Below are positions 27,271-49,842 of a stretch of 64,000 nucleotides of DNA, piece after piece. Under the pieces are notes generated by a model. The model ran no database searches, was not told where the DNA came from, and worked only from the letters and a program-made list of their open reading frames with translations. The DNA is from an uncultured Gammaproteobacteria bacterium (lineage in GTDB: Bacteria > Patescibacteriota > Patescibacteriia > UBA9934). Position 1 is the stretch's first letter; each line of letters opens with the position of its first letter. Where the stretch lies: contig CAZREA010000001.1 in NCBI GenBank assembly GCA_964599455.1, positions 269,183-333,182 on the forward strand, in the 5' to 3' direction. The position numbers and the translations under genes were made by a program.

Positions 27271-29228
27271 ATATCTTTTAGTGAATGATCGTTTTGCAAC
27301 GGTGTTGCATTTGGGATGGTGGGATGCGGAAGCGAAGCTAAAGGATTCACCATCAATGGTGAAGACGATCCACTCATTGCACTTCCTGGCTTCTTTTTGC
27401 GGCGACGTTTACGTTTTTTCTTCGCTCCATCATCAACATGATTGTTTTCTGTACGCTCAGAACTAAAAGAAAGATCGTCACGCTCTTGCTGATGATTGTA
27501 TTCAACAGTTGATGACGTGGATGGTATTTGTGTCGACCGAGGTTCGGATTGCAATGCCGATAACGGCGCCGAGGCTGCAACTGGTCTTTCAATTATTGCC
27601 CCATCGGACACTTTTGCCGGAGCAAAAATAACCGGTCCTTTTTGTACTTTACGCATGTCCGCTTTTTCTTTTGCCTTTTGGCGTTCGGCATCAACGATAG
27701 GCTTGCATTCTTCACAATAAATCGGACGCGAACGATCGAGTTCAACCGGCAATAAGAATTTTTTGCCACATCGCGTACAGTCGTATTCGTGACTGTAACG
27801 CAACTTCTTGGCTTCTTTTTTCGCATCACGCACTTCGGCAAGTTTTTCTTCAACATTCACATCATCACCAAAACCACTCCACGTTACCACATGGTCTTCA
27901 ATCATCTTGCGATTGCCGCCGTAACGCTCACGTGATTGTTCAATAACTTTTTGCGCACTGAAAGTTCGCTGTGCAATGGGAGGTAAAGTAGTAGCGGAAA
28001 ATGGTTGACTCGTCACGCCATCAATCATGAGTTTGACGTAGATACCAATTTTTGGCAGCTCAATAAGATCCTGAGCCGTAAAGCGGGGCATGAATTCAGG
28101 TTCAAGGAAAAGACTATCCGGCGAACCCACACGAAAAGTGATCATGGTACCCACGTTACCGAACACCGCATCGCGCACTTCTTCGGACAGCTGGGCAATG
28201 TATTGATGCGCCAAAATAAGATTCAATCGATATTTACGCGCCTCAGACAAAATCGTCGCAAATGATTCAACGGCAAAGTTTTGAAATTCATCAACGTACA
28301 AGTAAAAATCTTTGCGATCTTTTTCGGGCATGTCGACCCGTTCCATGGCAGAAATCTGCACCTTGGTAATGAGCATGCCGCCCAACAAGCGCATCGCTTC
28401 GTCACCATTTCGTCCCTTTGATAAGTTCACAATAAAAATCTTTTCATTGTCCATGATGTCGCGCAAATTCAAAGAACTTTTTGCCTGCGCAACAATATTG
28501 CGTATAACCGCCGATGAAATAAATTGTCCGACTTTATTTTGAATTGGCGCTACAGCTTCTGAGGCGAACTTTGAATCGTAGGCTGCAAACTCTTGCACCC
28601 AAAATTGCTTCACGATCGGATCTTTGATGTTTTTAATGATCTCGAGACGATAATCCTTGTCCGACAACATGCGATTGATACCAAGAAGTGTGGAGCCAGG
28701 CGTATCGAGTAATGCCTTCACGGTGTTATTGAGAATATATTCCATGCGCGCGCTCCACACATTTTCCCAAATCTTTTTAAAGACCGACAACAATGATGAT
28801 GCAATACGTTCTTTTTCTTCCGTAAGTAAATCAACCGGCAAATCATGATTTACCTCAAGAACGTTGAAGGCGATCGGATTATCAAAATCAGCAGGATTGA
28901 AATAGACAACATCATTAATGCGCCACGAAGGAATGAAGTCAATCAATTTTTCGGCCGTGTCACCGTGCGGATCAATATAACAGCAGCCGTGCCCCGCATA
29001 GACGTCCGACAAAAACATGTTCTCCATGAGCGTGGTTTTGCCCATACCCGTCTTACCGATAATGTACATGTGGCGACGGCGATCATCGGTTTTGATGCCA
29101 AACTTGCGCATGGCATTGCGAAAATTTGTTTGGGCAAAATGCGTAACATGCTGCTCATGATCATACTGAAACGAACCATCTCCTGATGGTTTTGTGGGCT
29201 TTACTGCATCGTCATGGACATCGTGCAT
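27267..29228 (-). CDS. FtsK/HerA/TraG-superfamily P-loop ATPase, T4SS coupling-protein-like (TraG/VirD4/TraD family), soluble, with C-terminal zinc ribbon and basic S/T-rich tail
   Basis: YIIGKTGMGKTTLMENM (Walker A). YLYVDEFQNFAVESF (Walker B D-E). ARKYRLNLILAHQYIAQL matches the TraG-D_C-like sensor. YDCTRCGKKF...YCEECKP ribbon. KKKRKRRRKKK tail. No TM segments. Confidence 0.55.
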   Translation of the reverse strand: MHDVHDDAVKPTKPSGDGSFQYDHEQHVTHFAQTNFRNAMRKFGIKTDDRRRHMYIIGKTGMGKTTLMENMFLSDVYAGHGCCYIDPHGDTAEKLIDFIPSWRINDVVYFNPADFDNPIAFNVLEVNHDLPVDLLTEEKERIASSLLSVFKKIWENVWSARMEYILNNTVKALLDTPGSTLLGINRMLSDKDYRLEIIKNIKDPIVKQFWVQEFAAYDSKFASEAVAPIQNKVGQFISSAVIRNIVAQAKSSLNLRDIMDNEKIFIVNLSKGRNGDEAMRLLGGMLITKVQISAMERVDMPEKDRKDFYLYVDEFQNFAVESFATILSEARKYRLNLILAHQYIAQLSEEVRDAVFGNVGTMITFRVGSPDSLFLEPEFMPRFTAQDLIELPKIGIYVKLMIDGVTSQPFSATTLPPIAQRTFSAQKVIEQSRERYGGNRKMIEDHVVTWSGFGDDVNVEEKLAEVRDAKKEAKKLRYSHEYDCTRCGKKFLLPVELDRSRPIYCEECKPIVDAERQKAKEKADMRKVQKGPVIFAPAKVSDGAIIERPVAASAPLSALQSEPRSTQIPSTSSTVEYNHQQERDDLSFSSERTENNHVDDGAKKKRKRRRKKKPGSAMSGSSSPLMVNPLASLPHPTIPNATPLQNDHSLKDI

Positions 29229-33920: not shown

Positions 33921-34349
33921 TTATGTTGGCGAGATATGCGCATCAATCGTCACATTTACCAAAGCATCTGCTTCTTTATTTGCCTCGCGACGAACATGGG
34001 TGAATGTTACTTGGCGAAAGTGTTGCCGCAGATCGTGTACCTCAATAAATCTCTTGGCGATTTCTGGATTCTTCACCTTATACTGTCCATTCAATTGACG
34101 CACGGCGAGTTCCGAATCCATGCGCATGTCAACGACGTCGTATCCGAGTTCATGTGCTTTTTTTAAGCCCTCGATAATACCGGTGTATTCCGCTTGATTA
34201 TTGGTGGTTGCACCAAGATAACGTGCAGCTTCGGCAATTTGCTCGCCGCGCGATCCGTCTTTGCGTTTCTCGAATAATACCGCCGCGCCAGCTGCAGGTC
34301 CGGGATTACCCCGCGATCCACCGTCTGTATAGATGATGCAAGTTTTCAT
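33921..34349 (-). CDS. rnhA: Ribonuclease HI
   Basis: MKTCIIYTDGGSRGNPGPAAGAAVL and other RNase H motifs. 142 aa. Confidence 0.85.
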   Translation of the reverse strand: MKTCIIYTDGGSRGNPGPAAGAAVLFEKRKDGSRGEQIAEAARYLGATTNNQAEYTGIIEGLKKAHELGYDVVDMRMDSELAVRQLNGQYKVKNPEIAKRFIEVHDLRQHFRQVTFTHVRREANKEADALVNVTIDAHISPT

Positions 34350-36070
34350 ATATGTGCAGATCGTATATCAACAATACGACATTGTACCTCTCTTTTACCA
34401 TTCCATTCATTAAGAGAAATTTCATAGGCAATGTCCAGTTTTTCCCCTATGCGCAGTACGCCAAGTTTATTCCCAAAACCAAAACCGACAAAACGATAAC
34501 TCTTTCCCTCGCCATCCTCAACACGCAAACGCAAGTGAGAACCTGTTGATCCCATAGCTGAGGTTTCAACAACGGTCATCTGTGTGGCCGCAAAAATAGG
34601 CGGTCGGTTCCCTTCGCCAAATGGTGCGCATCGTTGAATTTCCGCGCACAATGCAAATGATGCTTCGGCAGGATGCAGCTCGGTATCAATGTGTAAAAGA
34701 TCGCGAACGCCTTCGTCGCCATAAAACTTTTCTGCAAATATATTCGCGCGTTCGCGAAAATGCGATACTTCAGCTTCTGTGTGCAAAGTTAATCCACATG
34801 CCTGCGGATGTCCGCCACGCTTTACATACAATTCATCACCACATGCATTCATCAGTTCAACTAAATGGAGTCCGCCCAGACTTCGCCCCGAACCAACCAC
34901 ATGCTCGCCAACTTTCGTAAACGCAAATGCTGGACGGCCAAAATCGCTCACCAATCTACCCGCAATTAATCCCACAATACCCGGCAACCAATGCGATGCA
35001 TATACCGAAAGCACGGGTCCAAGTGCAAGCATTTCTTTCACTTGTACGACCGCTTCTTCATACGCAGCCGTAAACACCGATTGCCGCTGACGATTCAATT
35101 GTTCGAGCGTTAATGCTGCTTCTTGTGCTTCGATAACGGTTGTCGCCGACAACGCACGAAATGCCGCTTGCGCAGAAGTCATGCGCCCAGCCGCATTCAA
35201 ACGCGGACCAATACGAAAACCAATAGTTTGGGTATCGATATCGGCAAAATTTGTTCCAGTCGCTTCAATGATTGCTCGCAATCCCGGTCGGCGGGTTTTT
35301 TGCAGCACACGCAAACCGTAATACTCCAGCACCCGATTCTCCCCGATCAATGGCATGACATCAGTAACGGTTGCAATGGCAACCAGATCAAGAAACCATT
35401 TTTCGTAGCCTTCAGGAAAATGTGCACCACGCTTTTGTGCTTCGTGAATAAGTGCTGACGCAAACTTAAAAGAGACTCCGGTTCCGCATAACGTTTTGTT
35501 AGGATACGTTTCACCAGGAGCCAGGGGATGCAGAATAATTGCCTGTTCGGGAAAATGTTGGCCAAGTTGATGATGATCGCACACAATCACGTCCATACCC
35601 AACTCGTGCGCGCGACCAAGTTCAAGACCATTGGCAATACCGCAATCAATGGTTACCAGGAGCTTTATCCCTTCTTGGCCAAAGCGTTCGATAGTGTGCA
35701 TCGATACACCGTACCCATCATGCTCGCGATCGGGCAAAAAAACCTCAAGCTGTATGGGAAAGGACAATGCTTTGGCGATATCGTGAAGCGCTCCATGCAA
35801 AAGTGTCGAGCCACTCACGCCATCAGCATCGTAATCACCATGAATGACAATGTGCTCTCCCTGTTCGAGGGCTTGGAACATACGGTTCACTGCCTGTTCC
35901 ATTTTTGTGAATAGATAAGGGCTATGCATGCCCTCTTGCCAATTGGGAAAAAGAAAATCTTGTTGTTTATCAATCGACAATCCTCGATTATGCAAAAGCT
36001 GTGCCACGAGATCATCGTGCACACGCGGCGCAATATGCCAAATTTTATTTGTTAATTCCTCCGTCTTCAC
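34346..36070 (-). CDS. recJ: Single-stranded-DNA-specific exonuclease RecJ
   Basis: DHH family with HIVIHGDYDADGVSGSTLL, DHH and GGHPQACG motifs. 574 aa. Confidence 0.85.
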   Translation of the reverse strand: MKTEELTNKIWHIAPRVHDDLVAQLLHNRGLSIDKQQDFLFPNWQEGMHSPYLFTKMEQAVNRMFQALEQGEHIVIHGDYDADGVSGSTLLHGALHDIAKALSFPIQLEVFLPDREHDGYGVSMHTIERFGQEGIKLLVTIDCGIANGLELGRAHELGMDVIVCDHHQLGQHFPEQAIILHPLAPGETYPNKTLCGTGVSFKFASALIHEAQKRGAHFPEGYEKWFLDLVAIATVTDVMPLIGENRVLEYYGLRVLQKTRRPGLRAIIEATGTNFADIDTQTIGFRIGPRLNAAGRMTSAQAAFRALSATTVIEAQEAALTLEQLNRQRQSVFTAAYEEAVVQVKEMLALGPVLSVYASHWLPGIVGLIAGRLVSDFGRPAFAFTKVGEHVVGSGRSLGGLHLVELMNACGDELYVKRGGHPQACGLTLHTEAEVSHFRERANIFAEKFYGDEGVRDLLHIDTELHPAEASFALCAEIQRCAPFGEGNRPPIFAATQMTVVETSAMGSTGSHLRLRVEDGEGKSYRFVGFGFGNKLGVLRIGEKLDIAYEISLNEWNGKREVQCRIVDIRSAHI

Positions 36071-36265
36071 AGTGCGTGTACCTTACTGGGGAAAGAGGAA
36101 AAGTTGAAGCAAGATATCCAGAAGATCGGAATTCTCCTAGCGGGACGTAGTGGAACGGGTGAGGATATATTCGATGTGCGTTTCTCATGCCCACTGTGCG
36201 AAATGATGTATTTTTGGAGGCTATTAAGATAGAATGGGAAAGATTATTCGATATGGTAGGCAATT

Positions 36266-37069
36266 ATGGGTATTAATTCCACCTCAAGTATTGAAAAAGA
36301 ATTAAAAAATTCTCGGGAGCGTATTTTTTGTGAAAGAAAAGATGTTGCCAGAGAGGCCGAGAATCGCTTAAGGATAGCCTTCGAACGATTGAACATTTCT
36401 TATCCGGACCTTCCTGAAATTGAGGTGAAGTTTGTTGATTCCCCAGATCAACCTGAGCTCGGAAGGACATATGTTGATATGCGCTCCGCTCAGGTGCTCT
36501 TTGATTCACGATTCGCTGCTCAAGCTCAGGAGGATGTGCTCGTGAATAAACTGAGAGAAGGTGGTTTGGAGTATCCCGGAATGATACAGGTACTTACGCA
36601 CGAAGCTGGCCATATTGCATTATGGTCTGTACTCGGAAACGGAAAACGTCCAGCGACACGGCTATTAGATGAAGGTTGGGCGACATTACTTGAAGAGGCC
36701 GGATCGCAAGAGGATTTTGAAGCAACCCTAAAGCAACGAGCTAGAGAAGGATTTTCTTCCGAACCCGAAATTTTTGAACGATGCCTTGATTTCCGAAAAG
36801 TTATTCTTCCAGAAGAAAATCTCAACGGCGTAGAATATATTGTTGGAGCAACTATTTTATTATGGATTCGAGAAACATTTAATAACGAGATCATGCTCAA
36901 TGCACTACGAGCTACGCTAGCTCTTGCAGAGAGAGATGATTCGGTGAAACAAAATAATTCTGACACACAAGATGGGGACGAACGGCTTGAAAATGTTCTT
37001 CGGCAGATCTTCGCCCCCAGGGAAATAGCTGACGTAAAGCGTAGCTATCTTGAATGGTTAAAAAAGTAG
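36266..37069 (+). CDS. Hypothetical protein with HExxH motif (putative zinc metallopeptidase); lower GC than neighbours
   Basis: LTHEAGHIALW. No further family assignment possible by eye. Confidence 0.4.
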   Translation: MGINSTSSIEKELKNSRERIFCERKDVAREAENRLRIAFERLNISYPDLPEIEVKFVDSPDQPELGRTYVDMRSAQVLFDSRFAAQAQEDVLVNKLREGGLEYPGMIQVLTHEAGHIALWSVLGNGKRPATRLLDEGWATLLEEAGSQEDFEATLKQRAREGFSSEPEIFERCLDFRKVILPEENLNGVEYIVGATILLWIRETFNNEIMLNALRATLALAERDDSVKQNNSDTQDGDERLENVLRQIFAPREIADVKRSYLEWLKK

Positions 37070-37081
37070 TACGCCGTACTA

Positions 37082-37116
37082 AATAAAAAATCTCAGCGCG
37101 AGCTGAGATTTTTTTC
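37082..37116. terminator. Bidirectional rho-independent terminator between convergent genes
   Basis: aaataaaaaa-tctcagcgcgagctgaga-tttttttc. Confidence 0.65.
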
Positions 37117-37148
37117 ATGACAGAATGTCGGGTACGAAGTTGGAATCT

Positions 37149-37697
37149 TTATGATACGTTCGGAAAACGCTCAATGCCCTGAGCATACGCTTGGGCAAAA
37201 AGATCATCAAGGAGCGCACTCACTCCTCTACATTCATCGGCCAACAATTTTGCACCTCGTATGTAGTAGTAACATTCTTCCGAGGTCATGCTATCAATCG
37301 GATCAATAGCAAGCCCGCGCACATTCGAAACCTGATCAGCGATTTTTATTCTTCGCACACTTGAACTTTCTTTTCGAAGTCTTTGAGCTTGAAGGAGTTT
37401 TCGCTCTTGGACCGGCAAATCTTTAAAAAAATCATAATCGGTCAAACCTTCCACAATATCCCGCACTTCTTTGCCAAACTCCTTTTCTATATCATCTAAA
37501 CTCACTTCGGTATCTTCCACACTATCGTGAAGCCATGCCGCGATGATTTCATCGTCAGTCCCGCCAGAGATCCACACTAAATCTGCAACTTCTTGTATGT
37601 GATGCATCTGTGGTTTTTTAATCCCGGAAACACAAGCTCCAATGATGTGCGAATGGGCATTGCGAGCAAATTCTTGAGCGCGATTTAATCTAGCCAT
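37149..37697 (-). CDS. HD-domain (p)ppGpp hydrolase-like protein (RelA/SpoT N-terminal HD family, small alarmone hydrolase type)
   Basis: HSHIIGACVSGI...HHIQEVADLV...IIAAWLHDSVEDT matches the SpoT HD signature AALLHDvvEDT. Confidence 0.6.
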   Translation of the reverse strand: MARLNRAQEFARNAHSHIIGACVSGIKKPQMHHIQEVADLVWISGGTDDEIIAAWLHDSVEDTEVSLDDIEKEFGKEVRDIVEGLTDYDFFKDLPVQERKLLQAQRLRKESSSVRRIKIADQVSNVRGLAIDPIDSMTSEECYYYIRGAKLLADECRGVSALLDDLFAQAYAQGIERFPNVS

Positions 37698-37808
37698 ACA
37701 GTTGATGAAGGTACAAACTCTATACTAAACGTTTTCACTTTACCAGGTAGCCCCCTAGATCTCCGAGAGCTTCCTTGTGCCGCTGAGAGCAGAGCGGAAT
37801 ATCTTTTT

Positions 37809-38888
37809 TCATTCTTTCAAAATCCCCATCGCGCCCTCAACAATGCGCTCTTCGGCATTCAAGGGGAAAATAGCACAAATATTTCGCGCCAATGCTTGTC
37901 GATCCTCCGGATGATGAAGTAATTTTTGTATTTCTTGCAGCAGAATTTGTGGGGTGATCTCACGAATAACATTGGCGGCACCAAGATTTTGCAACGCGGT
38001 TGCGTTCGCTTCTTGATCAGTGGCGACTCGAGGAACAAGAATGGCAGGTTTACCCAGCAGAGCAAGTTCGGCGATTGTACCCATACCGGCGCGGCAAACG
38101 ACAATGTCGGCAGCGGCAAAAGCATCAGCCATACCTTCTTGCAAAAATTCAAGCGCTACATACCCTCGCTCAGCCTCATGTAATTTTTGCAAATCCGGAA
38201 GCATTTTTCCTTGACCGGTTAAGTGGATAACATTCACCTTTTGTAATAACTCTTCGGCGATTATCGTCATGGCATGATTAATCGAAGTCGCACCCGTGCC
38301 GCCACCAATAACAAGCACCGTTGGCAAATGCGATCGCAAGCTGTAGCGCTGATACGCAGTTGAACGATTACCAAATGTTAACGCCAATCGCGCCATACCA
38401 CCAACAACCGTCGTTTTCTTTTTAGGAAATGCGTCTGCGCTCTGGCTCCACGCTACGCTAATATGCGTCGCAAACGGCGCCATGAGTTTATTTGCAAGAC
38501 CAGGCGCAACATCAAGTTGATGAATCCACACCGGAATACGTCGCATCCAGGCAGCGATCACAATCGGCAAAGATACATAAGCACCGGCAGACATTACCAA
38601 ACTTGGCTGTAATTCTTTAAGACGATTCCATGATTTAATAAAACTGATTAAAAAGAAAAACGGTACAAACGGCAATGTCCATTTTCTGCTGCGATCAAAT
38701 TTGGGAGCTGACAAAGAAAAAAAGGGGATTTTCGCGCCCTCGATCAGAGAGCGTTCAGGTCCATGCGGCGTACCTATCCATGAGAATCGAACATCTCCTT
38801 CATGCTTACGCCACTCGGCTGCGACCGCCAAAAGCGGCGTCACGGGGCCAAGCGTTCCTCCTCCGGTAAATAAAATATGATGCGCCAT
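37809..38888 (-). CDS. murG: Undecaprenyldiphospho-muramoylpentapeptide beta-N-acetylglucosaminyltransferase
   Basis: GT28 N- and C-terminal domains. ILFTGGGTLGPVTPLLAV. 359 aa. Confidence 0.85.
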   Translation of the reverse strand: MAHHILFTGGGTLGPVTPLLAVAAEWRKHEGDVRFSWIGTPHGPERSLIEGAKIPFFSLSAPKFDRSRKWTLPFVPFFFLISFIKSWNRLKELQPSLVMSAGAYVSLPIVIAAWMRRIPVWIHQLDVAPGLANKLMAPFATHISVAWSQSADAFPKKKTTVVGGMARLALTFGNRSTAYQRYSLRSHLPTVLVIGGGTGATSINHAMTIIAEELLQKVNVIHLTGQGKMLPDLQKLHEAERGYVALEFLQEGMADAFAAADIVVCRAGMGTIAELALLGKPAILVPRVATDQEANATALQNLGAANVIREITPQILLQEIQKLLHHPEDRQALARNICAIFPLNAEERIVEGAMGILKE

Positions 38889-39386
38889 AGATACGCATCA
38901 TATTTTAACACTCTTTTCTTCCACAATCTTTCTTCCGATATACATCAGAAAAACGATGATGGAGGGAAGGCGGTATGACACACGCCTTCCCTCACGTTGA
39001 GTGTCTCTTGCATCTTGCGCATAACTGGTTCATCCCCACAACCCTTCGTGAGGCAGTTTTCGCAAGATCAAGATTACTCTCCCGTTATCCCCAGGGATGG
39101 GATGCGGTATTGCAACAAGTGGCGTTGTTGCCGCTCTCGTCCGCATAAAGCGCCACACACGGAGCCACGTCATGTTTCAATGGGCTTTGAAACATCCAGG
39201 AGAACTCCGTGTTCCAAGGTCTCCCCTGTTTTCCCGCCTGCACCACCAGGCAGGTGAAGAGGCATATGCCCATCGGCACGCGTGGCGCCTTACAGCACCA
39301 CCCACAGGCGCCGGTCTCTTCGGAAAACTATTTACATTCCTCTGCGAGACCAAGAAGCCTATCATCTTCTTTAACTATTGTACAGC

Positions 39387-41030
39387 CTATGCTCTTTTCT
39401 TCTTCCCTTTCTGTATTTTCGCTGCCTTAAGAAAGGCGACAAACAGTGGATGTGGAGAAAGGGGGCGAGATTGAAACTCAGGATGGAATTGTACACCAAT
39501 AAAAAACGGATGATCCTTCACTTCAATCATTTCAACAAGTCGACTATCAGGAGAGGTACCGGCGATAACAAGTCCAGATTCGATTAATTGCTCACGAAAA
39601 TCATTATTCACTTCATACCGATGACGATGACGCTCAGTGATCTCGTCTTGAACATAAGCCTTGCGCGAAATCGTACCCTTTGCAAGCACACAGGGATATG
39701 ATCCGAGTCGTAATGTGCCGCCGATTCCCTTCCCTTTTAATTTTTCGTCCTGATCGTTCATGAGATGAATGACGGGATGGGTAGTTTTTGCATTGATTTC
39801 AGTTGTATTGGCGTCTTTCCACTTGAGCTCAGTGCGAGCAAATTCAATCACCGCACATTGCATGCCGTAGCAAAGACCGAAATACGGAATCTTATTTTTG
39901 CGCACATAATTGATGGCCGCAATCTTGCCTTCAATGCCGCGAGAACCAAATCCACCGGGAATCAACACACCATGATACCGCGAGAGTTCCGTAAGCTTCT
40001 TTGGATCTTTTTCAAATTCTTCGGCATTCAACCATTCAATAACCGGCTTTTGCCCCGTGGCCCAAGCTGCATGTTTAATCGCTTCAAGAACAGAGAGATA
40101 GACATCCGATAAAATAAAATCTCCTGTTGAAAAATATTTTCCAATAACACCAATACGTACCTCATCTTTTACCGTAGCGATGCGATCAACGAGTTTTCTC
40201 CAATTCTCTAAATTACGTTTCTTTGTGCGCAAACGAAATGTTTTCAACATCGATTCTGCAAAACCTTGTTCTTCAAACAACAGCGGAACTTCGTAAATGG
40301 ATTTGGCATTTGAAGCGGTGATGACATGCTTTTCCGGAACCCCACAAAAACGACTGAGTTTTTCTCGACGCGGTGCATCGAGTGCATATTCCGATCGACA
40401 CACAAGAAAATCGGGATTGATGCCGATACGATTTACTTCACGCACCGCATGTTGCGTAGGTTTTGTCTTCATTTCCCCTAGTGAGGGCGGAACGGGAAGA
40501 TAACTCACCAGCACCGTACGCACGGAATCAGGATCGCGCAATTTCATCATGCGCACCGCTTCCAAAAAAAGAATATTCTCGTACTCTCCCACCGTTCCAC
40601 CAATCTCGATCAAAACAATGTCAGCCTTTGATTGCTTCGCTACACGTTCAATGCGCTCAATCACTTCTTCGGGAACACGCGGCACTACCTCGACACACTT
40701 TCCTTCATATCCACCTCGTCGTTCACGTTCAATAACCGATTGATACACGCGGCCTGTAGTCATGTAATTGCTACGCGTAATATCTTCATCAAGAAAACGT
40801 TCGTAATTGCCAATGTCTTGATCGGTTTCATCACCATCAACCGTTACAAACACTTCACCATGTTCAATGGGATTCATCGTCCCCGCATCAACGTTCACGT
40901 ACGGATCAATTTTAATGGCGGTCACTTTATAGCCACGTGATTTCAGTGTCAGTCCAAGCGCCGCCGTGGTTGTACCCTTTCCCACGCCACTCATGACGCC
41001 ACCGATAACGAAAATATAATGAGATTTCAT
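39387..41030 (-). CDS. pyrG: CTP synthase
   Basis: IFVIGGVMSGVGKGTTTAALG synthetase domain plus a GATase C-terminal domain (GLCYGMQ). 547 aa. Confidence 0.95.
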   Translation of the reverse strand: MKSHYIFVIGGVMSGVGKGTTTAALGLTLKSRGYKVTAIKIDPYVNVDAGTMNPIEHGEVFVTVDGDETDQDIGNYERFLDEDITRSNYMTTGRVYQSVIERERRGGYEGKCVEVVPRVPEEVIERIERVAKQSKADIVLIEIGGTVGEYENILFLEAVRMMKLRDPDSVRTVLVSYLPVPPSLGEMKTKPTQHAVREVNRIGINPDFLVCRSEYALDAPRREKLSRFCGVPEKHVITASNAKSIYEVPLLFEEQGFAESMLKTFRLRTKKRNLENWRKLVDRIATVKDEVRIGVIGKYFSTGDFILSDVYLSVLEAIKHAAWATGQKPVIEWLNAEEFEKDPKKLTELSRYHGVLIPGGFGSRGIEGKIAAINYVRKNKIPYFGLCYGMQCAVIEFARTELKWKDANTTEINAKTTHPVIHLMNDQDEKLKGKGIGGTLRLGSYPCVLAKGTISRKAYVQDEITERHRHRYEVNNDFREQLIESGLVIAGTSPDSRLVEMIEVKDHPFFIGVQFHPEFQSRPLSPHPLFVAFLKAAKIQKGKKKRA

Positions 41031-41095
41031 AGTTTTCAGAGAAGGCCAGTTGGGCCAGAAGGCCGGATGTAAAATCTTTTTCTCTGAATGCTGGC

Positions 41096-42250
41096 CTATT
41101 GGCTCTTCTGGCCGACTTTATTGTACTTCGACACATTCAACACAATTCCCACCGCTGTGAGTGCAACCGCAAGTGCCGTTCCGCCATAACTCACAAACGG
41201 CAACGGCACACCGGTAATCGGCAAGAGTCGCACCATGGCGCCCATGTTAACAACTGCCTGAATTCCCAGCCAGGCCATAATCCCCACCACTAAATATTTC
41301 CCAAATGTATCGGGCGATTGCTCAGCAATATGCAATCCTCGAAAAAGAAAAGCGATATATAGCATAAGAAATGCCGAGGTCAACAAAAATCCTAATTCTT
41401 CACCAATCACCGCAAAAATACTATCCCCTGCAACTTCGGGAAGATACTGAAATTTCTGCAAACTATGCCCATAGCCGCGTCCAAAAAATCCTCCCGAACC
41501 AATAGCCAGAAGTGCTTGCGTAATTTGATAGCCCGAACCCTGCGGATCATGCTCGGGATGCAAAAATGCCTCTAAACGATCGGCACGATAATTCTTTTCC
41601 TCATTTTCCGCAGTTGTGCCGGTAGAAAGCGTGAGCAACCACAACAAGGCAATACCTCCAAAACCCAGCATGACAAAATACTTCAGCGGTGCACCAGCCA
41701 CAAAATACACGGCCAGTGCCATCAGCACGATAATACCCATAGTTCCCGTATCAGGTTGCAACAACAACAATCCCATCACTGCTCCTAGCACCACCAAAAA
41801 CGGCAACAAACCCTTGGCAATATCTTTCACATTTTTCGCCAAGGTTCCCTCCATCCACGCCGCGACATACATTAAGAACGTAAGCTTTACAATTTCTGAC
41901 GGCTGTAAAGAGAAGGCGCCCAGCGAAATCCAACTGTGCGAACCTTTAATTTTGAGACCAATCCCCGGAACGAAAACGAGAATCAATAATAAAATAGTGA
42001 GAAGAAGCATCGGTATGGCGAAGCGACGATAGGCGGTATACGGCAGCTGATAGGCAACGACAAAACCTACGATGCCAGGCAGTAATCCGAAGAGAAGTTG
42101 ATGTTTAAAAAAGTAATACCCGTCATGAAATTTATCAAAACCCACGGGCCATGATGCCGAGGTTAACATGAGTAAACCAAAAATAACGAGCATGCCCAGC
42201 AAAAGTGCAAAAATAGGATCTGCCGCAAACTTCCTTTGGCGGACATCCAT
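41096..42250 (-). CDS. ftsW: SEDS-family peptidoglycan polymerase FtsW/RodA
   Basis: 384 aa, 10 TM, SEDS motifs. Confidence 0.8.
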   Translation of the reverse strand: MDVRQRKFAADPIFALLLGMLVIFGLLMLTSASWPVGFDKFHDGYYFFKHQLLFGLLPGIVGFVVAYQLPYTAYRRFAIPMLLLTILLLILVFVPGIGLKIKGSHSWISLGAFSLQPSEIVKLTFLMYVAAWMEGTLAKNVKDIAKGLLPFLVVLGAVMGLLLLQPDTGTMGIIVLMALAVYFVAGAPLKYFVMLGFGGIALLWLLTLSTGTTAENEEKNYRADRLEAFLHPEHDPQGSGYQITQALLAIGSGGFFGRGYGHSLQKFQYLPEVAGDSIFAVIGEELGFLLTSAFLMLYIAFLFRGLHIAEQSPDTFGKYLVVGIMAWLGIQAVVNMGAMVRLLPITGVPLPFVSYGGTALAVALTAVGIVLNVSKYNKVGQKSQ

Positions 42251-42253
42251 ATG

Positions 42254-43309
42254 TTAAGAAAGAAGTCCTTTGTCAAGAAGTGCGACCACAATACCAATAC
42301 CTGCGCCCATCCACGATATCACCCAAAAACGCATGACTACTTTTGGTTCGGGCCAACCCTTGGCTTCAAAGTGATGATGAATAGGCGCAATGAGAAAAAC
42401 TTTTTTACCAAACAATCTTTTCGATGCTAATTGTATCGTCGTGGTCACGGCTTCAGCAACAAAGACGATGCCAATAATCGGCAACAAGAGCGCCGCATTG
42501 GTGAGCATAGCAACGATTCCCAACGTCACACCCAAACTCATGGCTCCGGTATCGCCCATAATGAAACGAGCTGGATAAATGTTAAACCACAAAAAGGCGA
42601 GCAGTGTTCCCACGATCACTGCACAAAACGTTGCCAAATCAACTTTGCCCTGCAACAACGCAATGACTGCATACGCCGCAAATGCCGAGGCCATGGTTCC
42701 TCCTGCCAAACCATCAAGTCCATCGGTTTGATTAACGGAAAATGATGTCGCCACGATGATGGCCACAAAAAAAGGAATGTACAGCCAGCCAATACCCACA
42801 TCACCATAAAAAGGAACATGCAGCGAATTCCAACCCAGCTTAAAGTAAAACCACCAGGCACCGATCAAGGCCACGATGGTGTAAAGAATCAACCGGTGCG
42901 AGATACGAATACCGCCACCTTTAGGTCCAATCTTCAATACATTAAAAATATCATCAGCAACACCAATGAGCCCTGCGGCCACCAAAGCACCAAGCGGCAA
43001 CCATGTTTGCGAACGCGAAAAGAAATTCAAATACGACAGCACATGATCAGGAAACACCCAGGCATATCCAGCAAAAAAGAGTGCGAGCACGCCGGTCGTT
43101 ACCCACATGAGCAATCCACCCATCGTTGGCACACCCGCTTTCTTCTTATGAAGTTCAGCAAAAAGCGGCGCCGTTACTGCACTGCGAATACTCTTCCCCA
43201 TTTTATATTTATACAAAAGATGGGTAAGGAGTGGTGTCCAAGCCATGGCAACAACAAATCCTAGTGTTGATAAAATTAACAATTTAGAAAGAGAAAAGAC
43301 ATCAACCAT
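42254..43309 (-). CDS. mraY: Phospho-N-acetylmuramoyl-pentapeptide transferase
   Basis: DGLDGLAGG and other MraY motifs. 351 aa. Confidence 0.9.
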   Translation of the reverse strand: MVDVFSLSKLLILSTLGFVVAMAWTPLLTHLLYKYKMGKSIRSAVTAPLFAELHKKKAGVPTMGGLLMWVTTGVLALFFAGYAWVFPDHVLSYLNFFSRSQTWLPLGALVAAGLIGVADDIFNVLKIGPKGGGIRISHRLILYTIVALIGAWWFYFKLGWNSLHVPFYGDVGIGWLYIPFFVAIIVATSFSVNQTDGLDGLAGGTMASAFAAYAVIALLQGKVDLATFCAVIVGTLLAFLWFNIYPARFIMGDTGAMSLGVTLGIVAMLTNAALLLPIIGIVFVAEAVTTTIQLASKRLFGKKVFLIAPIHHHFEAKGWPEPKVVMRFWVISWMGAGIGIVVALLDKGLLS

Positions 43310-46591: not shown

Positions 46592-47566
46592 ATGTCATCT
46601 CCTGTTCGAAAAATCCTCTTTTTTGTTTTTTGTCTCATCTTTTTTATCTCTGCACCCCTTATCGTGCTTTATACTGCGGGATACCGCATCAACCTTACCA
46701 ATCGAGTCGTGAGCCAAACCGCCGCCCTTGCGCTTGCAAGCACTCCCAAAGGAGCCATGATCTCTATCAATGGCACACGTACAAAAGAAAAAACTCCAAC
46801 GGTGTTCCAGCGTCTTTCTTCCGGAACAATCACCGTTCGTTTCGAAAAAGAAGGATATCACTCTTGGGAGCGAACCATTTTTCTTGAAAGCGGAAAAACA
46901 AGCTATATCACCGCTCCTCTTTTTCTCGATACGAACGCGACGCCTCTTCTCGCGGGAAGTCGCGCCTTCAACCTTGCGCAAGCTGCACGTACAGATAGTG
47001 AAATATCCGCAACAGATATTTTTCTTGTGGATAACGGAAAAAATGTCGAGATATCTGTAGTGACGATTGTGGGCACAACACTCATCGGTCTTTTGCCGCA
47101 AGAGACGTATACGATTATCGCCAGAACTGCTACCGATATCGTACTTCTTGATCAGTCACAAAAACCGTACATGCTTTCCCTCACTGCCAATAGCGAACCC
47201 GTCGCTTTATCGATGACCGCAGTCGCATGGGCGTGGCTTGAGGAAGATCGCTTATTTGTCTGGTCTGACGGTAATGAAATTCGGCTATATAATGCCACCA
47301 CTCGGGAAACAAATTTTATTACCCGCCAAGGCGATACCATCACCCATCTTGCGTTTGCGCAAGATGGGTATGGCATTCTTGCCGCTACCGCACATACTGT
47401 CGTAGCCTGGGATCGCTACGTGTATGAAAACGGACGTTTTTCTACAACCATTATCGATAACCACACCATCGATGATTTTTGGTGTAATGAGACAGGTGAT
47501 CGTTGCTATTTTGCTACGAAGCAAGAAGGAGGTGAGGAGATTTGGGAGTACGAATTAGTAAAGTAA
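46592..47566 (+). CDS. Membrane-anchored PEGA-domain protein
   Basis: TM anchor, then PKGAMISINGTRTKEKTPTVF...GTITVRFEKEGYHSWERTI (PEGA domain). The longest ORF starts at 46520. Confidence 0.55.
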   Translation: MSSPVRKILFFVFCLIFFISAPLIVLYTAGYRINLTNRVVSQTAALALASTPKGAMISINGTRTKEKTPTVFQRLSSGTITVRFEKEGYHSWERTIFLESGKTSYITAPLFLDTNATPLLAGSRAFNLAQAARTDSEISATDIFLVDNGKNVEISVVTIVGTTLIGLLPQETYTIIARTATDIVLLDQSQKPYMLSLTANSEPVALSMTAVAWAWLEEDRLFVWSDGNEIRLYNATTRETNFITRQGDTITHLAFAQDGYGILAATAHTVVAWDRYVYENGRFSTTIIDNHTIDDFWCNETGDRCYFATKQEGGEEIWEYELVK

Positions 47567-47651
47567 CAGCGAGCTTTTCTTCATTGACAGCAAGTGACTT
47601 TTCCGCTACAGTCAGCGGTCTTCTCTTACAAAAACAAGGAGGGAGAGAGAC

Positions 47652-48652
47652 ATGACACTTACTACGCAGGAACAACTGAATCGCTTCATCGGCGGCCAGC
47701 TCCAGATGGTCATGGACGGTCTGGAGATCCGGATGAACGTTGAAACGATTGCGACCTCTCCCGAGGGGGTCTTGATCGGTAGCGACGTGTACTGGCGGAA
47801 GAAGAGGGACGATGCGGATTTCACTCCCAGTCCCGGGGGAATCCATCTCCTCATGGAGGCGAGGATCGACGAGGACGAGCTCCTTGTCGGCGAAATCCGG
47901 ATACGGTGGTACTCGAAGCCCATTCAGGGCACGGTGTATCCGCCCGGCTACGCGGACATCCTCAGATTCGAGTTGCCGACTACAACGCTTGAGGAGGTCG
48001 TGCGCGAGCACGGCACCGTTGCCGTGAAATCGGTTTTCACAGACAAGGAGATCATCGTCCACCGCGTACTGGTCGACGACGAGAAGTGGATCGGGGTGGT
48101 GAGAACAGTATTCCCCTGCCCCTTCACCAACCTCGTCAACACCGGCATAAAGTCGATCAAGCTTGAGGAGGGCGGGATCTTCCGGGTAGACGGCTTCCTC
48201 AAAAGCGAGGACGGGGGTATGAGCCACGCAAGCTGCCCAATAAAGGGCTGGGGAAAGACCATCGCGGAGGCCGTCGCCGCAGCCTACAATTCGGAACCGG
48301 TGGCGAGCTACCGGGCCACGCATCCCGACCACGAGGTCGAGGAACGGGTCATCGTCGAAAAGTACGACATCGTCGTCGTCTACGCCACTCCGGACGGCAC
48401 GATCTTGGAGCAAAAATACTCGCGCCGCAAACGGCATCAACCGAAGTGTTTACCTTACAACGCGAAGCTCGCGAAAAGCAGCGGTTATTTATGGAAGCTG
48501 AGGCAAAGGCAAATGCGGACGGCCTCATCCACTTGACCTGCATGGTCGGTAAGGGAGCCGACCAGCACGAGTACTCGGGCGCCGGAAGCACACCCGAGGA
48601 AGCCCTCAAGAACGCCATGGCCCAGGCGTCGCAACCGTCAAAGTCCATCTAG
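47652..48652 (+). CDS. GC-rich hypothetical protein, paralog A (possible frameshift around 48440; alternatively two genes 47652..48536 and 48446..48652)
   Basis: GGAGGGAGAGAGACATG RBS. Contains ...DGGMSHASCPIKGWGKTIAEAVAAAY.... The overlapping +2-frame ORF ends ...HLTCMVGKGADQHEYSGAGSTPEEALKNAMAQAS. The same G-x-G-x-T-x-E-(D/E)-A-(I/L/V)-x-x-A motif recurs in paralog B. The antisense ORF 47514..48440 is judged spurious. Confidence 0.45.
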
Positions 48653-48666
48653 GACTACGACTCGAA

Positions 48667-48712
48667 ACCCGCTATGTCGTTCGCGAACGATATGGCGGGT
48701 TCACTGTCTTAA
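48667..48712 (+). terminator. Rho-independent terminator of paralog A
   Basis: acccgctatgtcgttcgcgaacgatatggcgggt (17-bp stem including GU pairs) followed by tcactgtctt. Confidence 0.55.
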
Positions 48713-48808
48713 AAAGAGATTGCTGGATCCCCGTAACATTGACGAAAGGGGATTTTTTATTTACCTTAAATAGTCTTCTTGAGTTCACAGAAACGAAGGA
48801 GTGAAGAC

Positions 48809-49273
48809 ATGATACGTATGCCAAGAAGGCCGTCAGAGCTCAGACCGCCGCCGAACACAGAGCCAGAAGGAAATACGTCACAAGACACAGGAACACCAAC
48901 CATCACGCTCATGGCGCTTCTGCAGGAGCACCGCGAGCTCGAGGTCTACTCCACTTCCGACAAGGCTACTGGTACGGTGACCATCATCGCAGCCATGGTC
49001 AACGACGAGCTGACGGACGTGATCCCTCTCACGTTCTCGCACTACATCGCCAACGTGACCATGACGTCCATCCAGGGAGTGCAGCTGCGCGACGGGACGA
49101 TATACGTCGACGGCTCCATCACGATCGAAGGTCGTGGAAGCATCCGTATCCGTGGATACGGAGAGACGATCGAGGACGCAATCGCGACCGCGTACTGCAA
49201 CTTCGACCATCTTTCGCCGCCCCCACGAGGAACAACCGAGCAATCCGTCCAGACCGCGCCCAGTTCGGTCTGA
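48809..49273 (+). CDS. GC-rich hypothetical protein, paralog B
   Basis: AGGAG RBS then ATG 48809; the longest ORF starts at 48779. ...LRDGTIYVDGSITIEGRGSIRIRGYGETIEDAIATAYCNF... Confidence 0.45.
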   Translation: MIRMPRRPSELRPPPNTEPEGNTSQDTGTPTITLMALLQEHRELEVYSTSDKATGTVTIIAAMVNDELTDVIPLTFSHYIANVTMTSIQGVQLRDGTIYVDGSITIEGRGSIRIRGYGETIEDAIATAYCNFDHLSPPPRGTTEQSVQTAPSSV

Positions 49274-49306
49274 ACATAGCCACTCCCGGACTTGGGAGTG
49301 GCTCGA

Positions 49307-49350
49307 CCCGTCACGTCGTTCGCAAACGATGTGACGGGTTCACTGTTTTT
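49307..49350 (+). terminator. Rho-independent terminator of paralog B (homologous to 48667..48712 with compensatory changes)
   Basis: cccgtcacgtcgttcgcaaacgatgtgacggg followed by ttcactgttttt. A second perfect hairpin, agccactccc-ggactt-gggagtggct, lies at 49278..49303. Confidence 0.55.
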
Positions 49351-49399
49351 AACGAACAAAAAATCACGAGATCCTCGTAATTTTTTTACTTCATATTTT

Positions 49400-49840
49400 T
49401 TACCATTCGTACGCGATATCTTTGATGGGAATATTTTTCGCTTCATTCGGTGACCAAGCTTCGGTTGCACAATTCGCTACAAGCGCAACCGTTGGCAATA
49501 AATTTTTCCACGCATACGCGACACCAGGAGGAATCGTGAGTAATGCGTAACGATTATCTCCTAAAAGAATTTCTTGAAACGCACCTTTGGTTGGAGATGC
49601 TTCGCGCGTATCGTGCAACACGAATTTAATACGTCCTGTTGGCACCGCCATGTTACTCCAACTTGCCGAATGTAATTTCCAACCCTTCACCACCCGAGGA
49701 TAAATGCAAGAAAAATAGATTTCGCCAAAGCGACGGAAATGCGCAGCGTCGGATCGCAGCATATGCATAACTTGCCCGTCTTCACCCGGAACAATCGACA
49801 GCGGAGTAATAACAACGCCTTGAATATCCGCTTTATTCAT
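49400..49840 (-). CDS. RmlC-like cupin (NDP-4-dehydro-6-deoxyhexose 3,5-epimerase family)
   Basis: VKGWKLH...TGRIKFVLHDTREASPTKGAFQEILLGDNRYALLTIPPGVAYAWKNL aligns to my recollection of RmlC (LRGLHFQ...[47 protein letters not shown]). Confidence 0.65.
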   Translation of the reverse strand: MNKADIQGVVITPLSIVPGEDGQVMHMLRSDAAHFRRFGEIYFSCIYPRVVKGWKLHSASWSNMAVPTGRIKFVLHDTREASPTKGAFQEILLGDNRYALLTIPPGVAYAWKNLLPTVALVANCATEAWSPNEAKNIPIKDIAYEW

Positions 49841-49842
49841 AT

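Follow-up and report, generated by a model that had tools for sequence, protein, structure and literature searches.

A hairpin-dense 498-nt spacer between pyrG and murG in the cell-wall operon of an uncultivated Candidatus Uhrbacteria bacterium

The ancestral junction between pyrG and murG is tight in the clade studied here, ranging from overlapping genes to a gap of 23 nt, and one genome alone carries 498 extra bases at that place, with no homologue anywhere that we searched. The DNA analysed, hereafter the window, is a 64-kb stretch from a metagenome-assembled genome of an uncultivated Candidatus Uhrbacteria (Patescibacteria/CPR). CPR bacteria have small, compact genomes and are hard to culture, and their gene regulation is little known. 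With moderate confidence we consider the spacer a lineage-specific, non-coding and hairpin-dense insertion into an operon, compounded of hairpin modules and acting, if at all, in cis on murG, and not a free-standing housekeeping RNA gene.

The pyrG-murG junction

The spacer is placed within a mraY-ftsW-pyrG-murG cell-wall operon on the minus strand, in a dcw operon whose genes otherwise stand close together (Table 1). Its sequence was verified against an independent Logan assembly (SRR16481182, locus L088), which is 100% identical to the window over 35975-42148. A previous sequence-only reading of this region had described its GC content as far above that of the flanking genes, which turned out to be an overstatement, as the spacer has 51% GC, with a peak of 58% in 200-nt windows, versus 42-50% in the flanking genes and 47.5% in the whole window. 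The value does exceed that of the remaining spacers outside a GC-rich island (39-48%). The island itself, at about 47.6-52 kb, reaches up to 61% GC, contains orphan ORFs and is clearly foreign.

Table 1. Positions of the genes, hairpins and repeats at the pyrG-murG junction (window coordinates).
Feature	Position	Strand	Details
mraY	42254-43309	-	upstream of ftsW
ftsW	41096-42250	-	upstream of pyrG
pyrG (CTP synthase)	39387-41030	-	gene upstream of spacer; identified by Pfam
Direct repeat GAAGAAAAGAG, left copy	39392-39402	-	11 nt, inside pyrG tail
Spacer	38889-39386	-	498 nt, pyrG stop codon to murG start codon; non-coding, lineage-specific insertion
Hairpin A	39313-39351	-	GGUCUC/GAGACC with inner GGAA/UUCC; pair probability 1.00
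Hairpin B	39233-39254	-	8 bp, CCUGCCUG/CAGGCGGG, one G-U pair; -14.5 kcal/mol minus, -9.0 plus strand
Hairpin D	39157-39212	-	56 nt, 19 bp; 10-bp base under perfect 9-bp stem AUGUUUCAA/UUGAAACAU
Perfect stem ATGTTTCAA/TTGAAACAT	39172-39195	-	within hairpin D span
Hairpin E	38999-39079	-	81 nt, 31 bp, -32.5 kcal/mol; longest helix of spacer
Hairpin F	38962-38993	-	11-bp perfect GC-rich stem GAGGGAAGGCG/CGCCTTCCCTC, 10-nt loop
27-codon upstream ORF	38898-38981	-	GTG to TGA; crosses hairpin H 5' arm; stop 9 nt before murG ATG
Hairpin G	38920-38963	-	44 nt, 18 bp; -16.9 kcal/mol minus, -8.1 plus strand
Direct repeat GAAGAAAAGAG, right copy	38911-38921	-	11 nt, about 20 nt upstream of murG
Hairpin H	38871-38907	-	perfect inverted repeat of 14 bp (15 bp counting a G-U pair); arms 38871-38884/38894-38907
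murG	37809-38888	-	gene downstream of spacer; Pfam Glyco_transf_28 N and C domains

Related loci were looked for in genome contigs by means of MurG; a scan with a single sequence gave none, and an alignment-based scan gave matches. The comparison of this spacer with those of related genomes had been proposed in the sequence-only reading, and nothing similar was found there: six relatives keep the ftsW-pyrG-murG order, and their junction is overlapping (L005) or measures 2 nt (L084 and L085), 3 nt (L083), 13 nt (L003) or 23 nt (L082). In a seventh with the same gene order (L002) the place is taken by an unrelated 210-nt hairpin with perfect arms of 29 bp and a fold z of -12.6, and a scan of metagenome contigs and loci with this arm, carried out as a MITE test, gave no further copy.

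Among 80 relatives, the median length of the murG-upstream spacer is about 3 nt, and in only ten does it reach 108-231 nt, with a fold z between -4 and -10.5 in seven of these ten. Enlarged murG-upstream spacers in Uhrbacteria repeatedly consist of long, mutually unrelated hairpins with a fast turnover. Even two loci whose flanks are about 90% identical, as judged by eye in the alignment, have unrelated hairpins (L049 and L056). Perfect inverted repeats of at least 12 bp occur at 3.1 per kb in the murG-upstream spacers (7 events), at 1.19 per kb in other non-ORF DNA and at 0.13 per kb in ORF DNA. Foldback elements are repeated in some relatives, and a family of hairpins with GATTAC(A/G)GAT arms was seen in two loci (L075 and L049). 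The nearest relatives are distant, with MurG proteins 61-63% identical, so the spacer may still, with low probability, be a functional RNA specific to this lineage.

Folding of the spacer and of the murG start

The spacer folds as a string of at least eight stable, independent hairpins, most of whose stems are perfect Watson-Crick palindromes. The four hairpins pointed out in the sequence-only reading are all present. Those at 39172-39195 and 39313-39351 (GGTCTC-N27-GAGACC) were as described, and CCTGC-N8-GCAGG (39237-39254) was also found; read on the minus strand, its stem grows to 8 bp, one of them a G-U pair. The one at 38962-38993 had been given as 10 bp around 12 nt, and actually has a stem of 11 bp and a loop of 10 nt. 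That reading had not reported the inverted repeat 38871-38884/38894-38907 or the hairpins at 38999-39079, 39157-39212 and 38920-38963. Hairpin E, by its predicted helix, is a possible target of a double-strand-specific RNase.

This density of stems is far from that expected by chance. Between 38865 and 39395, 14 perfect stems of at least 6 bp were counted, versus 4.2 +/- 2.0 in 1000 dinucleotide shuffles, and five of at least 8 bp versus 0.25, a count reached by none of the 1000 shuffles. The full 498-nt fold has a z of -6.2 for the minus strand and of -5.9 for the plus strand, and the two 250-nt halves of the spacer rank 3 and 5 among the 510 windows of a fold z-scan over the 64 kb. Overall, the excess in perfect stems and folding energy corresponds to a z of about -6 to -7. 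Such fold scores are by themselves no proof of selection at the RNA level, because a GC-rich coding region of the same window (51139-51388) also reaches -6.4. The z-scan also suggested structure in another spacer (9451-9659), which gave a z of only -1.7 when it was folded whole. The asymmetry of G-U pairs favours the minus strand for 10 of the 11 hairpins; a strand call on this ground was discarded, since base composition accounts for most of the preference.

The start of murG itself is also structured. The loop of hairpin H holds the murG AUG (38888-38886), and its 3' arm is formed by codons 2-6 of the gene. With a predicted -18.4 kcal/mol, the start region of murG (-30 to +21) is the most stable of the 52 genes of the window (mean -7.2, SD 3.7), and in seven relatives the same region has values from 0 to -7.5 kcal/mol. 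Shine-Dalgarno motifs are missing from most genes of the window. When the spacer was compared with its flanks, only one similarity was significant (P 0.003), namely the 14-nt stretch that copies codons 2-6 of murG in inverted orientation. The direct repeat of 11 nt reaches marginal significance (P about 0.05) and is rich in purines; its two copies may be a duplication footprint of the insertion. A duplication of flanking DNA as the source of the spacer was rejected on these two results.

As for transcription, no terminator-like site was found on either strand between 38600 and 39700, so the spacer would be read through as a part of the minus-strand operon mRNA. A run of five U lies 9 nt past hairpin F, with no U-tract directly after the stem, and this hairpin was not called a terminator. 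We infer read-through, processing and the strand of the RNA from the sequence.

In the explanation that we favour, the spacer is probably a compound of foldback or hairpin modules that arose from insertion and from inverted duplication of the template-switch type, of which the perfect inverted copy of murG codons 2-6 would be the clearest footprint. Its presence would break the tight junction and abolish the translational coupling from pyrG to murG, and its long helices could be offered for processing or stabilisation of the mRNA. Hairpin H would sequester the initiation region of murG in a genome mostly devoid of Shine-Dalgarno sequences, so that translation of murG would be damped or would depend on the opening of the hairpin. 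The opening could be due to alternative pairing with 38951-38961, as CAUCAUCGUUU, in the 5' part of hairpin G, could leave its partner for the 5' arm of hairpin H, or to ribosomes that complete the 27-codon upstream ORF just 9 nt short of the AUG, an arrangement that makes this ORF a possible translational coupling device. Against this explanation, the spacer is of another kind than the elements of the relatives, being GC-richer and complex in sequence, with many medium-sized hairpins in place of one long foldback; it has no terminal inverted repeats, and its flanking direct repeat is only marginal.

Coding potential, known RNA families and rival explanations

The short ORFs of the region had been regarded as driven by composition, and we reached the same view: no ORF is credible, and their translations are rich in W, C, R and H, as is typical of translated GC-rich non-coding DNA. 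Searches of the gap ORFs against Pfam and PHROGs gave nothing credible, the sole match being a PHROG at the chance level (E 0.11), and for the three longest (64, 86 and 125 aa) collections of 5.8 billion sequences and of 1.84 billion representatives yielded no real homologue; one apparent protein match (P0123) was a translated tandem repeat. At the DNA level, tblastx of the spacer against the 80 related loci gave no match, and nhmmer and blastn against the same loci and the window gave only chance 14-15-mers. Neither was any match obtained by blastn against phages, plasmids giving a chance one of 28 nt, nor in a 29-mer scan of JGI metagenome contigs, and exact and gapped pattern scans of viral contigs found only a chance terminator hairpin in a GC-rich phage (L087). 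This lack of DNA and protein homologues in the collections searched argues against a decayed gene, and the gene remnant contemplated in the sequence-only reading is left unsupported by Pfam, PHROGs, tblastx and the large protein collections.

That the spacer is non-coding and significantly structured agrees with the earlier proposal of a structured ncRNA; the families then named as candidates (tmRNA, RNase P RNA and 6S) do not hold. The covariance scan suggested there, with Rfam 15 at gathering thresholds over the whole window, detected a tRNA-Lys at 8043 and nothing else, and at E<=10 over 38700-39600 (901 nt) it gave three chance-level matches, one with a plant miRNA and two with families of C/D snoRNA. 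ARAGORN, also run over the window, found no tmRNA. The earlier inspection by eye had recognised no motifs of RNase P RNA, tmRNA or SRP RNA. The absence of both a covariance-model match and of this spacer in relatives had been named beforehand as evidence against a structured ncRNA, and both absences were observed.

Class by class, tmRNA, which is defined by a tRNA-like domain (acceptor stem plus T-arm) and a tag-peptide frame, was rejected on the lack of an ARAGORN prediction and of an Rfam tmRNA match at E<=10, and RNase P RNA of types A and B on the lack of an Rfam match at either threshold and on a fold of independent hairpins with no P4-type pseudoknot core. For 6S RNA and SRP RNA there was no Rfam match either, the fold has multiple hairpins and no 6S-type rod, and relatives lack the spacer. 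A riboswitch or another conserved cis-regulatory leader was discarded because no Rfam family matched, 64 of the 80 relatives have less than 80 nt upstream of murG, and the larger spacers are unrelated in sequence. TRF detected no tandem repeats or periodicity in the spacer, its direct repeats are of just 8-13 nt and its similarity to the rest of the window is limited to chance 14-15-mers, which speaks against a CRISPR, DGR or tandem-repeat RNA locus. The search for inverted repeats linking the two ends of the spacer, as in a MITE, was negative, and no second copy was found within the window. An oriC with DnaA boxes or an attC site was rejected by eye, since a single imperfect TTATCCCCA was seen, an AT-rich region is lacking and the surroundings contain no integrase.

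Among the rival explanations, the identity of the spacer as a housekeeping RNA (tmRNA, RNase P RNA, 6S or SRP RNA) diverged beyond the reach of the models is effectively refuted: its size and GC enrichment are compatible, and CPR RNAs may diverge, but no relevant match appeared even below threshold, the fold lacks the hallmarks of these RNAs, and relatives have nothing at a position where a housekeeping RNA would stay conserved. We give hardly more credit to a TIGR-type stem-loop guide-RNA array, or the RNA of another RNA-guided system. TIGR arrays consist of successive hairpins whose palindromic stems vary and whose repeats are not conserved, and are present in Patescibacteria (PMC12045711; bioRxiv 10.64898/2026.09.09.750476). 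Such systems are common in CPR bacteria, and two C/D-box families were among the sub-threshold Rfam matches; however, a scan of proteins encoded between 23.7 and 55.5 kb found no Nop-domain (Tas) gene, a simplified version of the published rule (boxC-N9-boxD twice within a loop closed by a stem of at least 5 bp, in tandem) gave zero units on either strand, tandem periodicity is lacking, and the hairpins are mostly fully paired, versus the loops of 28-43 nt expected of guide units. It is also very improbable that the spacer encodes one or more small orphan proteins, of which a 57-aa plus-strand, a 64-aa minus-strand and the 27-aa upstream ORF would be the candidates. The first (38975-39148) is on record in the NCBI and Logan gene calls, and the last, whose core LPSIIVFLMYIG is hydrophobic, stops 9 nt short of murG. 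All of them are nevertheless singletons without homologues, and no gap ORF but the 57-aa one is on record. They run across each other in several frames, show the biased compositions described above and have lengths that, by our own estimate, are expected by chance at 51-58% GC. The 57-aa "hypothetical protein" called inside the spacer is thus probably spurious.

The remaining rivals accept a non-coding spacer. One is neutral junk, that is, functionless decayed foreign GC-rich DNA or a fragment of a mobile element, which we hold to be unlikely, if worth keeping in mind. It would fit with the foreign island in the same window, the singleton nature of the spacer, the possible direct repeat at its flanks and the repeated foldback elements known in relatives. 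Against it, no leftover protein similarity was seen in any frame tested, terminal inverted repeats and a second copy in the 64 kb are missing, and the inverted copy specific to murG suggests local remodelling after the insertion; from general knowledge, a neutral 0.5-kb insert burying the start codon of an essential gene would also be expected to be costly in a compact CPR genome. A novel, lineage-specific structured ncRNA gene of about 400-480 nt, acting in trans and located between pyrG and murG by chance, appears rather improbable to us. Strong predicted structure in both halves, a GC content higher than in other spacers, the lack of a coding signal and the minus-strand G-U pairs, which become A-C mismatches on the plus strand, are in its favour, but no relative that shares the gene order has it and none of the collections searched contains it; moreover, it has no promoter-like or terminator-like boundaries and is made mostly of perfect palindromes, as expected for young inverted repeats at the DNA level. 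Equally doubtful in our opinion is a stronger version of the cis effect, a functional lineage-specific regulatory RNA gating the essential lipid II glycosyltransferase MurG, in which the helices would mark the mRNA for processing and the start-codon hairpin would be opened by the alternative pairing or by the 27-codon ORF. In a broader form of this idea, the murG-upstream junction of Uhrbacteria would be selected for structure and not for sequence, which would explain the recurrence of unrelated long hairpins that differ even between genomes with similar flanks (about 90% identical by eye).

If the preferred explanation, a hairpin-dense operon insertion, is true, the spacer would represent ordinary genome "wear", an orphan hairpin-rich insert in an operon, and its main value would be negative, in that it should not be annotated as RNase P RNA, tmRNA or 6S. 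The scarcity of Shine-Dalgarno motifs, a murG start within a hairpin of -18 kcal/mol and the recurrent hairpins of fast turnover would together offer a testable handle on post-transcriptional control in CPR bacteria, and the same observations bear on the origin of new RNA structure, by template switching or by foldback elements.

Comparison with known systems

Intercistronic palindromic elements co-transcribed with operons are known as REP/BIME in enterobacteria and as Correia repeat-enclosed elements (CREE) in Neisseria (PMC2649163, PMC3733652). They share with the spacer their nature of non-coding, hairpin-forming DNA between operon genes, and a presence or absence at each junction that depends on the lineage. 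Being transcribed with the operon, they can change how neighbouring genes are expressed, by stabilising the mRNA, by RNase III cleavage or by supplying new promoters, and by analogy the predicted helices of the spacer might do likewise. However, they measure 35-155 bp, number from tens to hundreds in a genome and show conserved sequences and terminal repeats, whereas the 498-nt spacer is single-copy in the 64 kb, has no terminal inverted repeats and gave no homologue.

Start regions are also sequestered by 5' leader hairpins in RNA thermometers, in the expression platforms of translational riboswitches and in erm-type leader-peptide control (PMC11264731). By its predicted fold, the spacer would have in common with them a start region in a stable helix, an alternative pairing partner upstream and a short upstream ORF across the sequestering arm. 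It differs in that it has no conserved aptamer, no conservation and no sign of a ligand or of a stalling signal, and in that the AUG lies in the loop and not in the stem.

With respect to its origin, template switching has been documented to give rise to perfect hairpins (PMC8794818), which coincide with those of the spacer in their perfect Watson-Crick stems, their short loops and the inverted copy of adjacent sequence, here that of murG codons 2-6. The mechanism accounts for single stems, not for around 470 nt of new sequence. The other comparison is with the long foldback hairpins of Uhrbacteria (L002, L007, L048, L049, L056). These are single, near-perfect hairpins of 110-210 nt, often AT-rich and of low complexity, whereas the spacer is GC-richer and complex, has at least eight shorter hairpins and lacks the GATTACAGAT arm motif. 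Nevertheless, both occur in the same taxon and just upstream of murG, show extreme fold z values and consist of sequences unrelated to one another.

Position, sequence and folding of the pyrG-murG spacer

The spacer (38889-39386, 498 nt) separates pyrG from murG, the next gene in the reading direction, and as both genes are on the minus strand, with ftsW and mraY upstream and an HD_4 gene downstream, it is intercistronic in a dcw-type operon. Its sequence is no assembly artefact, since an independent Logan contig from a different run (L088, SRR16481182) is 100% identical to the window over 35975-42148. The sequence-only reading had placed its GC content far above that of the flanks, which was overstated: GC is 51% over the spacer and at most 58% in any 200-nt stretch, compared with 47.5% in the whole window and 42-50% in the flanking genes.

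Features of the window, with helices A-H of the spacer lettered from pyrG to murG
Feature	Position	Strand	Remark
mraY	42254-43309	minus	upstream of ftsW
ftsW	41096-42250	minus	upstream of pyrG
pyrG	39387-41030	minus	Pfam CTP_synth_N and GATase
Helix A	39351-39313	minus	pair probability >0.8
Helix B	39254-39233	minus	pair probability >0.8
Helix C	39228-39215	minus	pair probability >0.8
Helix D	39212-39157	minus	56 nt, 19 bp; pair probability >0.8
Helix E	39079-38999	minus	81 nt, 31 bp; pair probability >0.8
Helix F	38993-38962	minus	pair probability >0.8
Helix G	38963-38920	minus	44 nt; pair probability >0.8
Helix H	38907-38871	minus	pair probability >0.8
Perfect inverted repeat, 14 bp	38871-38884 / 38894-38907		around murG start codon
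murG	37809-38888	minus	Pfam Glyco_transf_28 N and C domains
HD_4 gene			downstream of murG
Orphan ORF	47652-48536	plus	GC-rich region; no Pfam match
Orphan ORF	48446-48652	plus	GC-rich region; no Pfam match
Orphan ORF	48779-49273	plus	GC-rich region; no Pfam match
Orphan ORF	51049-51903	plus	GC-rich region; no Pfam match

The four hairpins already read by eye are all present, the first having 11 bp and a loop of 10 nt instead of the 10 bp and N12 given before, and four further elements (14-bp, 81-nt, 56-nt and 44-nt) were found. Dinucleotide shuffling (1000 shuffles) gave 4.2 ± 2.0 perfect stems of at least 6 bp and 0.25 of at least 8 bp, where the spacer has 14 and 5, respectively; none of the 1000 shuffles matched the observed number. 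Most stems are perfect Watson-Crick palindromes. The predicted fold energy of the 498 nt is -203.5 kcal/mol for the minus strand (z, the fold energy relative to shuffled sequences, -6.2) and -169.6 kcal/mol for the plus strand (z -5.9). When the entire 64 kb was scanned on both strands in 250-nt windows (n=510), background z was -0.5 ± 1.5 and the spacer's halves, at -7.1 and -6.4, ranked 3rd and 5th. Helices A-H are predicted as well determined on the minus, or operon, strand, with several competing pairings around GGCGCC/GUGGCGC motifs in the segments 39312-39262 and 39156-39082. The minus-strand RNA is more stable in 10 of the 11 modules (G-U pairs, 15 versus 9); as its G-rich composition explains most of the 34 kcal/mol difference, folding does not fix the RNA strand.

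Elsewhere in the window, the stretch 47650-51950, among dTDP-sugar/rhamnose-type genes, is GC-rich (up to 61%) and looks horizontally acquired; even its coding DNA reaches fold z-scores between -6 and -8.5. A long ORF without Pfam match (47514-48440, minus) overlaps the first orphan ORF almost fully on the opposite strand. Two similar terminator-like hairpins, CCCGCTATGTCGTTCGCGAACGATATGGCGGGTTCACTGT (48667-48705) and CCCGTCACGTCGTTCGCAAACGATGTGACGGGTTCACTGT (49305-49352), follow consecutive GC-rich ORFs, and the differences between the copies largely keep pairing. A 267-aa protein encoded at 36266-37069 (plus) keeps its position in both Logan contigs of this organism, and matched no Pfam family and, by sequence, no solved structure.

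Hairpin H and the start of murG

In hairpin H, murG codons 2-6 supply the 3' arm, opposite a 5' arm that copies them perfectly over 14 nt in inverted orientation, and the murG AUG lies inside the 7-nt loop. This inverted copy is the sole significant similarity between spacer and flanks (P 0.003). The murG region from -30 to +21 folds at -18.4 kcal/mol, the most stable among 52 window genes, in which structure around the start is mostly weak (mean -7.2 kcal/mol, sd 3.7), and the same region in seven relatives folds at 0 to -7.5 kcal/mol. Direct reading of the 20 nt that precede each start codon shows no Shine-Dalgarno-like motif for most of the 52 genes. Without such a motif, initiation depends on an unstructured start region, and this is presumably the case in this genome. 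A start-codon hairpin on an essential gene of a genome largely without Shine-Dalgarno motifs is a point of modest interest. Two ways in which a putative block on murG could be relieved are leads and not findings: an alternative pairing of CAUCAUCGUUU (38961-38951), 82% complementary to the 5' arm, and a 27-codon ORF (38981 to 38898) that crosses this arm and ends 9 nt short of the AUG.

The junction in relatives and hairpins in Uhrbacteria intergenic DNA

MurG homologues bear Patescibacteria names, and the related genomes are named as Candidatus Uhrbacteria; the best matches among 5.8 billion sequences are only 61-63% identical, so no collection holds a close relative. We compared 80 dcw loci (L002-L081) and five more obtained by exact-protein look-up (L082-L086). 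In most relatives murG follows ftsW directly. The order mraY-ftsW-pyrG-murG, with pyrG between ftsW and murG, was seen only in an Uhrbacteria sub-clade (the window, L002, L003, L005, L082, L083 and L084/L085); in many other relatives a pyrG 3' end is found about 1.1 kb upstream of mraY. In sub-clade members pyrG and murG overlap (L005) or are separated by 13 nt (L003), 23 nt (L082), 3 nt (L083) or 2 nt (L084/L085). Only L002 has a sizeable spacer (210 nt, 3782-3991). It forms a single long hairpin (z -12.6) whose terminal arms match perfectly over 29 bp, with a 14-bp repeat nested inside; it is unrelated in sequence to that of the window, and no further copy was found in the loci or metagenome contigs. 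These comparisons support that the 498 nt are an insertion specific to this lineage. An 11-nt purine-rich direct repeat, GAAGAAAAGAG, occurs in the pyrG tail (39392-39402) and around 20 nt upstream of murG (38911-38921), where its context resembles the pyrG-tail/murG junction of L003; with marginal significance (P about 0.05), the pair may be an insertion footprint.

In the 80 relatives the median length of the murG-upstream spacer is about 3 nt, and in 64 of them it is shorter than 80 nt. In 10 it measures 108-231 nt, and 7 of these fold far below shuffles (z -4.0 to -10.5). Each of the five inspected (L002, L007, L048, L049, L056) is a single long near-perfect hairpin, mutually unrelated in sequence. 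Between L049 and L056 the ftsW 3' ends and murG 5' ends are about 90% identical (alignment judged by eye), but entirely different hairpins of around 100 nt lie between them (L049:3893-4000, L056:3884-4000), one of them AT-rich, the other GC-rich and with about 35 bp in its stem. This indicates that hairpins at this one site are replaced rapidly or were inserted independently. Such recurrent, rapidly replaced hairpins at one junction are also of modest interest.

The motif GATTAC(A/G)GAT, absent from the window, recurs in hairpin arms at two places of L075 and in L049, so there looks to be at least one repeated foldback family in Uhrbacteria. The arms at L075:1025-1145, L075:5688-5791, L049:3905-3990 and L024:779-854 consist of quasi-tandem ACAGAT/ACGGAT units and have this motif in common across loci and genomes; those in other loci consist of repeats of GTAAAA, ACGAAAC or GCGAATTAG. 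Across the 80 loci, the density of perfect inverted repeats with arms of at least 12 bp is highest in murG-upstream spacers (3.1/kb); other non-ORF DNA has 1.19/kb, around 9 times the 0.13/kb of ORF DNA. Stems of 17-29 bp are common. Hairpins are therefore a general property of Uhrbacteria intergenic DNA, with only modest enrichment at this junction.

Alternative readings and the preferred explanation

The sequence-only reading had proposed a housekeeping RNA (tmRNA, RNase P RNA or 6S) or a decayed gene. Rfam 15 at gathering thresholds found only a tRNA-Lys (8043) in the whole window, and at E<=10 on 38700-39600 only plant miRNA and two C/D-box snoRNA families (E 0.02-2, far below gathering scores); ARAGORN found no tmRNA. 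The spacer ORFs have odd compositions, rich in W, C, R and H, and gave no credible match to Pfam or PHROG (a single PHROG match, E 0.11, is at chance level); tblastx of the spacer against all related loci was empty, and its DNA had no meaningful match in phage, plasmid, viral-contig or metagenome collections. Both proposals are thus unsupported: no family matched, the large protein collections held no credible homologue, and the spacer is lineage-specific and missing in relatives. A divergent housekeeping RNA has a practically negligible chance, and small orphan proteins are quite improbable. A 57-aa ORF (38975-39148, plus), antisense to the operon, is a called gene in NCBI and Logan records, yet it is a singleton without homologue, the only spacer ORF on record among 15 billion proteins, and probably a spurious call; correcting this likely mis-annotation is of modest interest. 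The 64-aa (minus) and 86-aa (plus) ORFs have no homologue, and among 1.84 billion representatives a 125-aa plus-strand ORF matched only itself and one translated tandem repeat.

That the spacer is neutral junk of foreign or mobile origin is unlikely; this reading fits the presence of a GC-rich foreign island (about 47.6-52 kb), but the spacer has no protein remnants or terminal repeats, and no extra copies in the 64 kb. Within 15 kb of the spacer, the only mobile-element genes seen encode a TrwB/TraG-like type IV coupling ATPase (27267-29228, minus) and, in the same minus-strand gene string, a 142-aa RNase H/RVT_3-like protein (33921-34349). An independent lineage-specific ncRNA gene is somewhat less likely still; the fold z-score proves little, as a GC-rich coding region of the window reaches -6.4, and no sigma-70-like promoter was called in the spacer on either strand. 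TIGR-type stem-loop guide arrays are hairpin strings without repeat conservation, common in CPR (PMC12045711; bioRxiv 10.64898/2026.09.09.750476), and this reading is very remote; it was rejected, as the flanking DNA, about 15 kb in each direction, showed no Nop/Tas gene and the spacer neither boxC-N9-boxD units nor periodicity; the spacer also lacks tandem repeats.

It is highly probable that the spacer is a lineage-specific structured non-coding insertion and no known RNA gene; with the proposed cis effects included, we lean slightly towards this explanation as a whole. The spacer's presence, uniqueness, structure and context are directly shown by the sequence comparisons and folding, whereas its transcription, RNA strand, processing and influence on translation are inferred. 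The insertion would have entered an ancestrally tight, probably translationally coupled pyrG-murG junction, and may be of one general kind with the relatives' foldback hairpins, though larger and composite. Template-switch mutation yields perfect palindromic stems and inverted copies of adjacent sequence (PMC8794818), and the perfect stems and inverted copy of murG coding sequence would point to such an origin. As no terminator-like site was called on either strand, the spacer is probably co-transcribed with the operon and would act in cis, through loss of pyrG-murG coupling and sequestration of the murG start region; a real effect on murG is held only tentatively.

By kind, the spacer is an orphan of a familiar class, the structured intercistronic inserts, and by sequence it is new, like most CPR intergenic DNA; it would not greatly surprise a specialist. 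Its long helices could be open to mRNA processing or stabilisation, as in REP and Correia elements (PMC3733652, PMC2649163).
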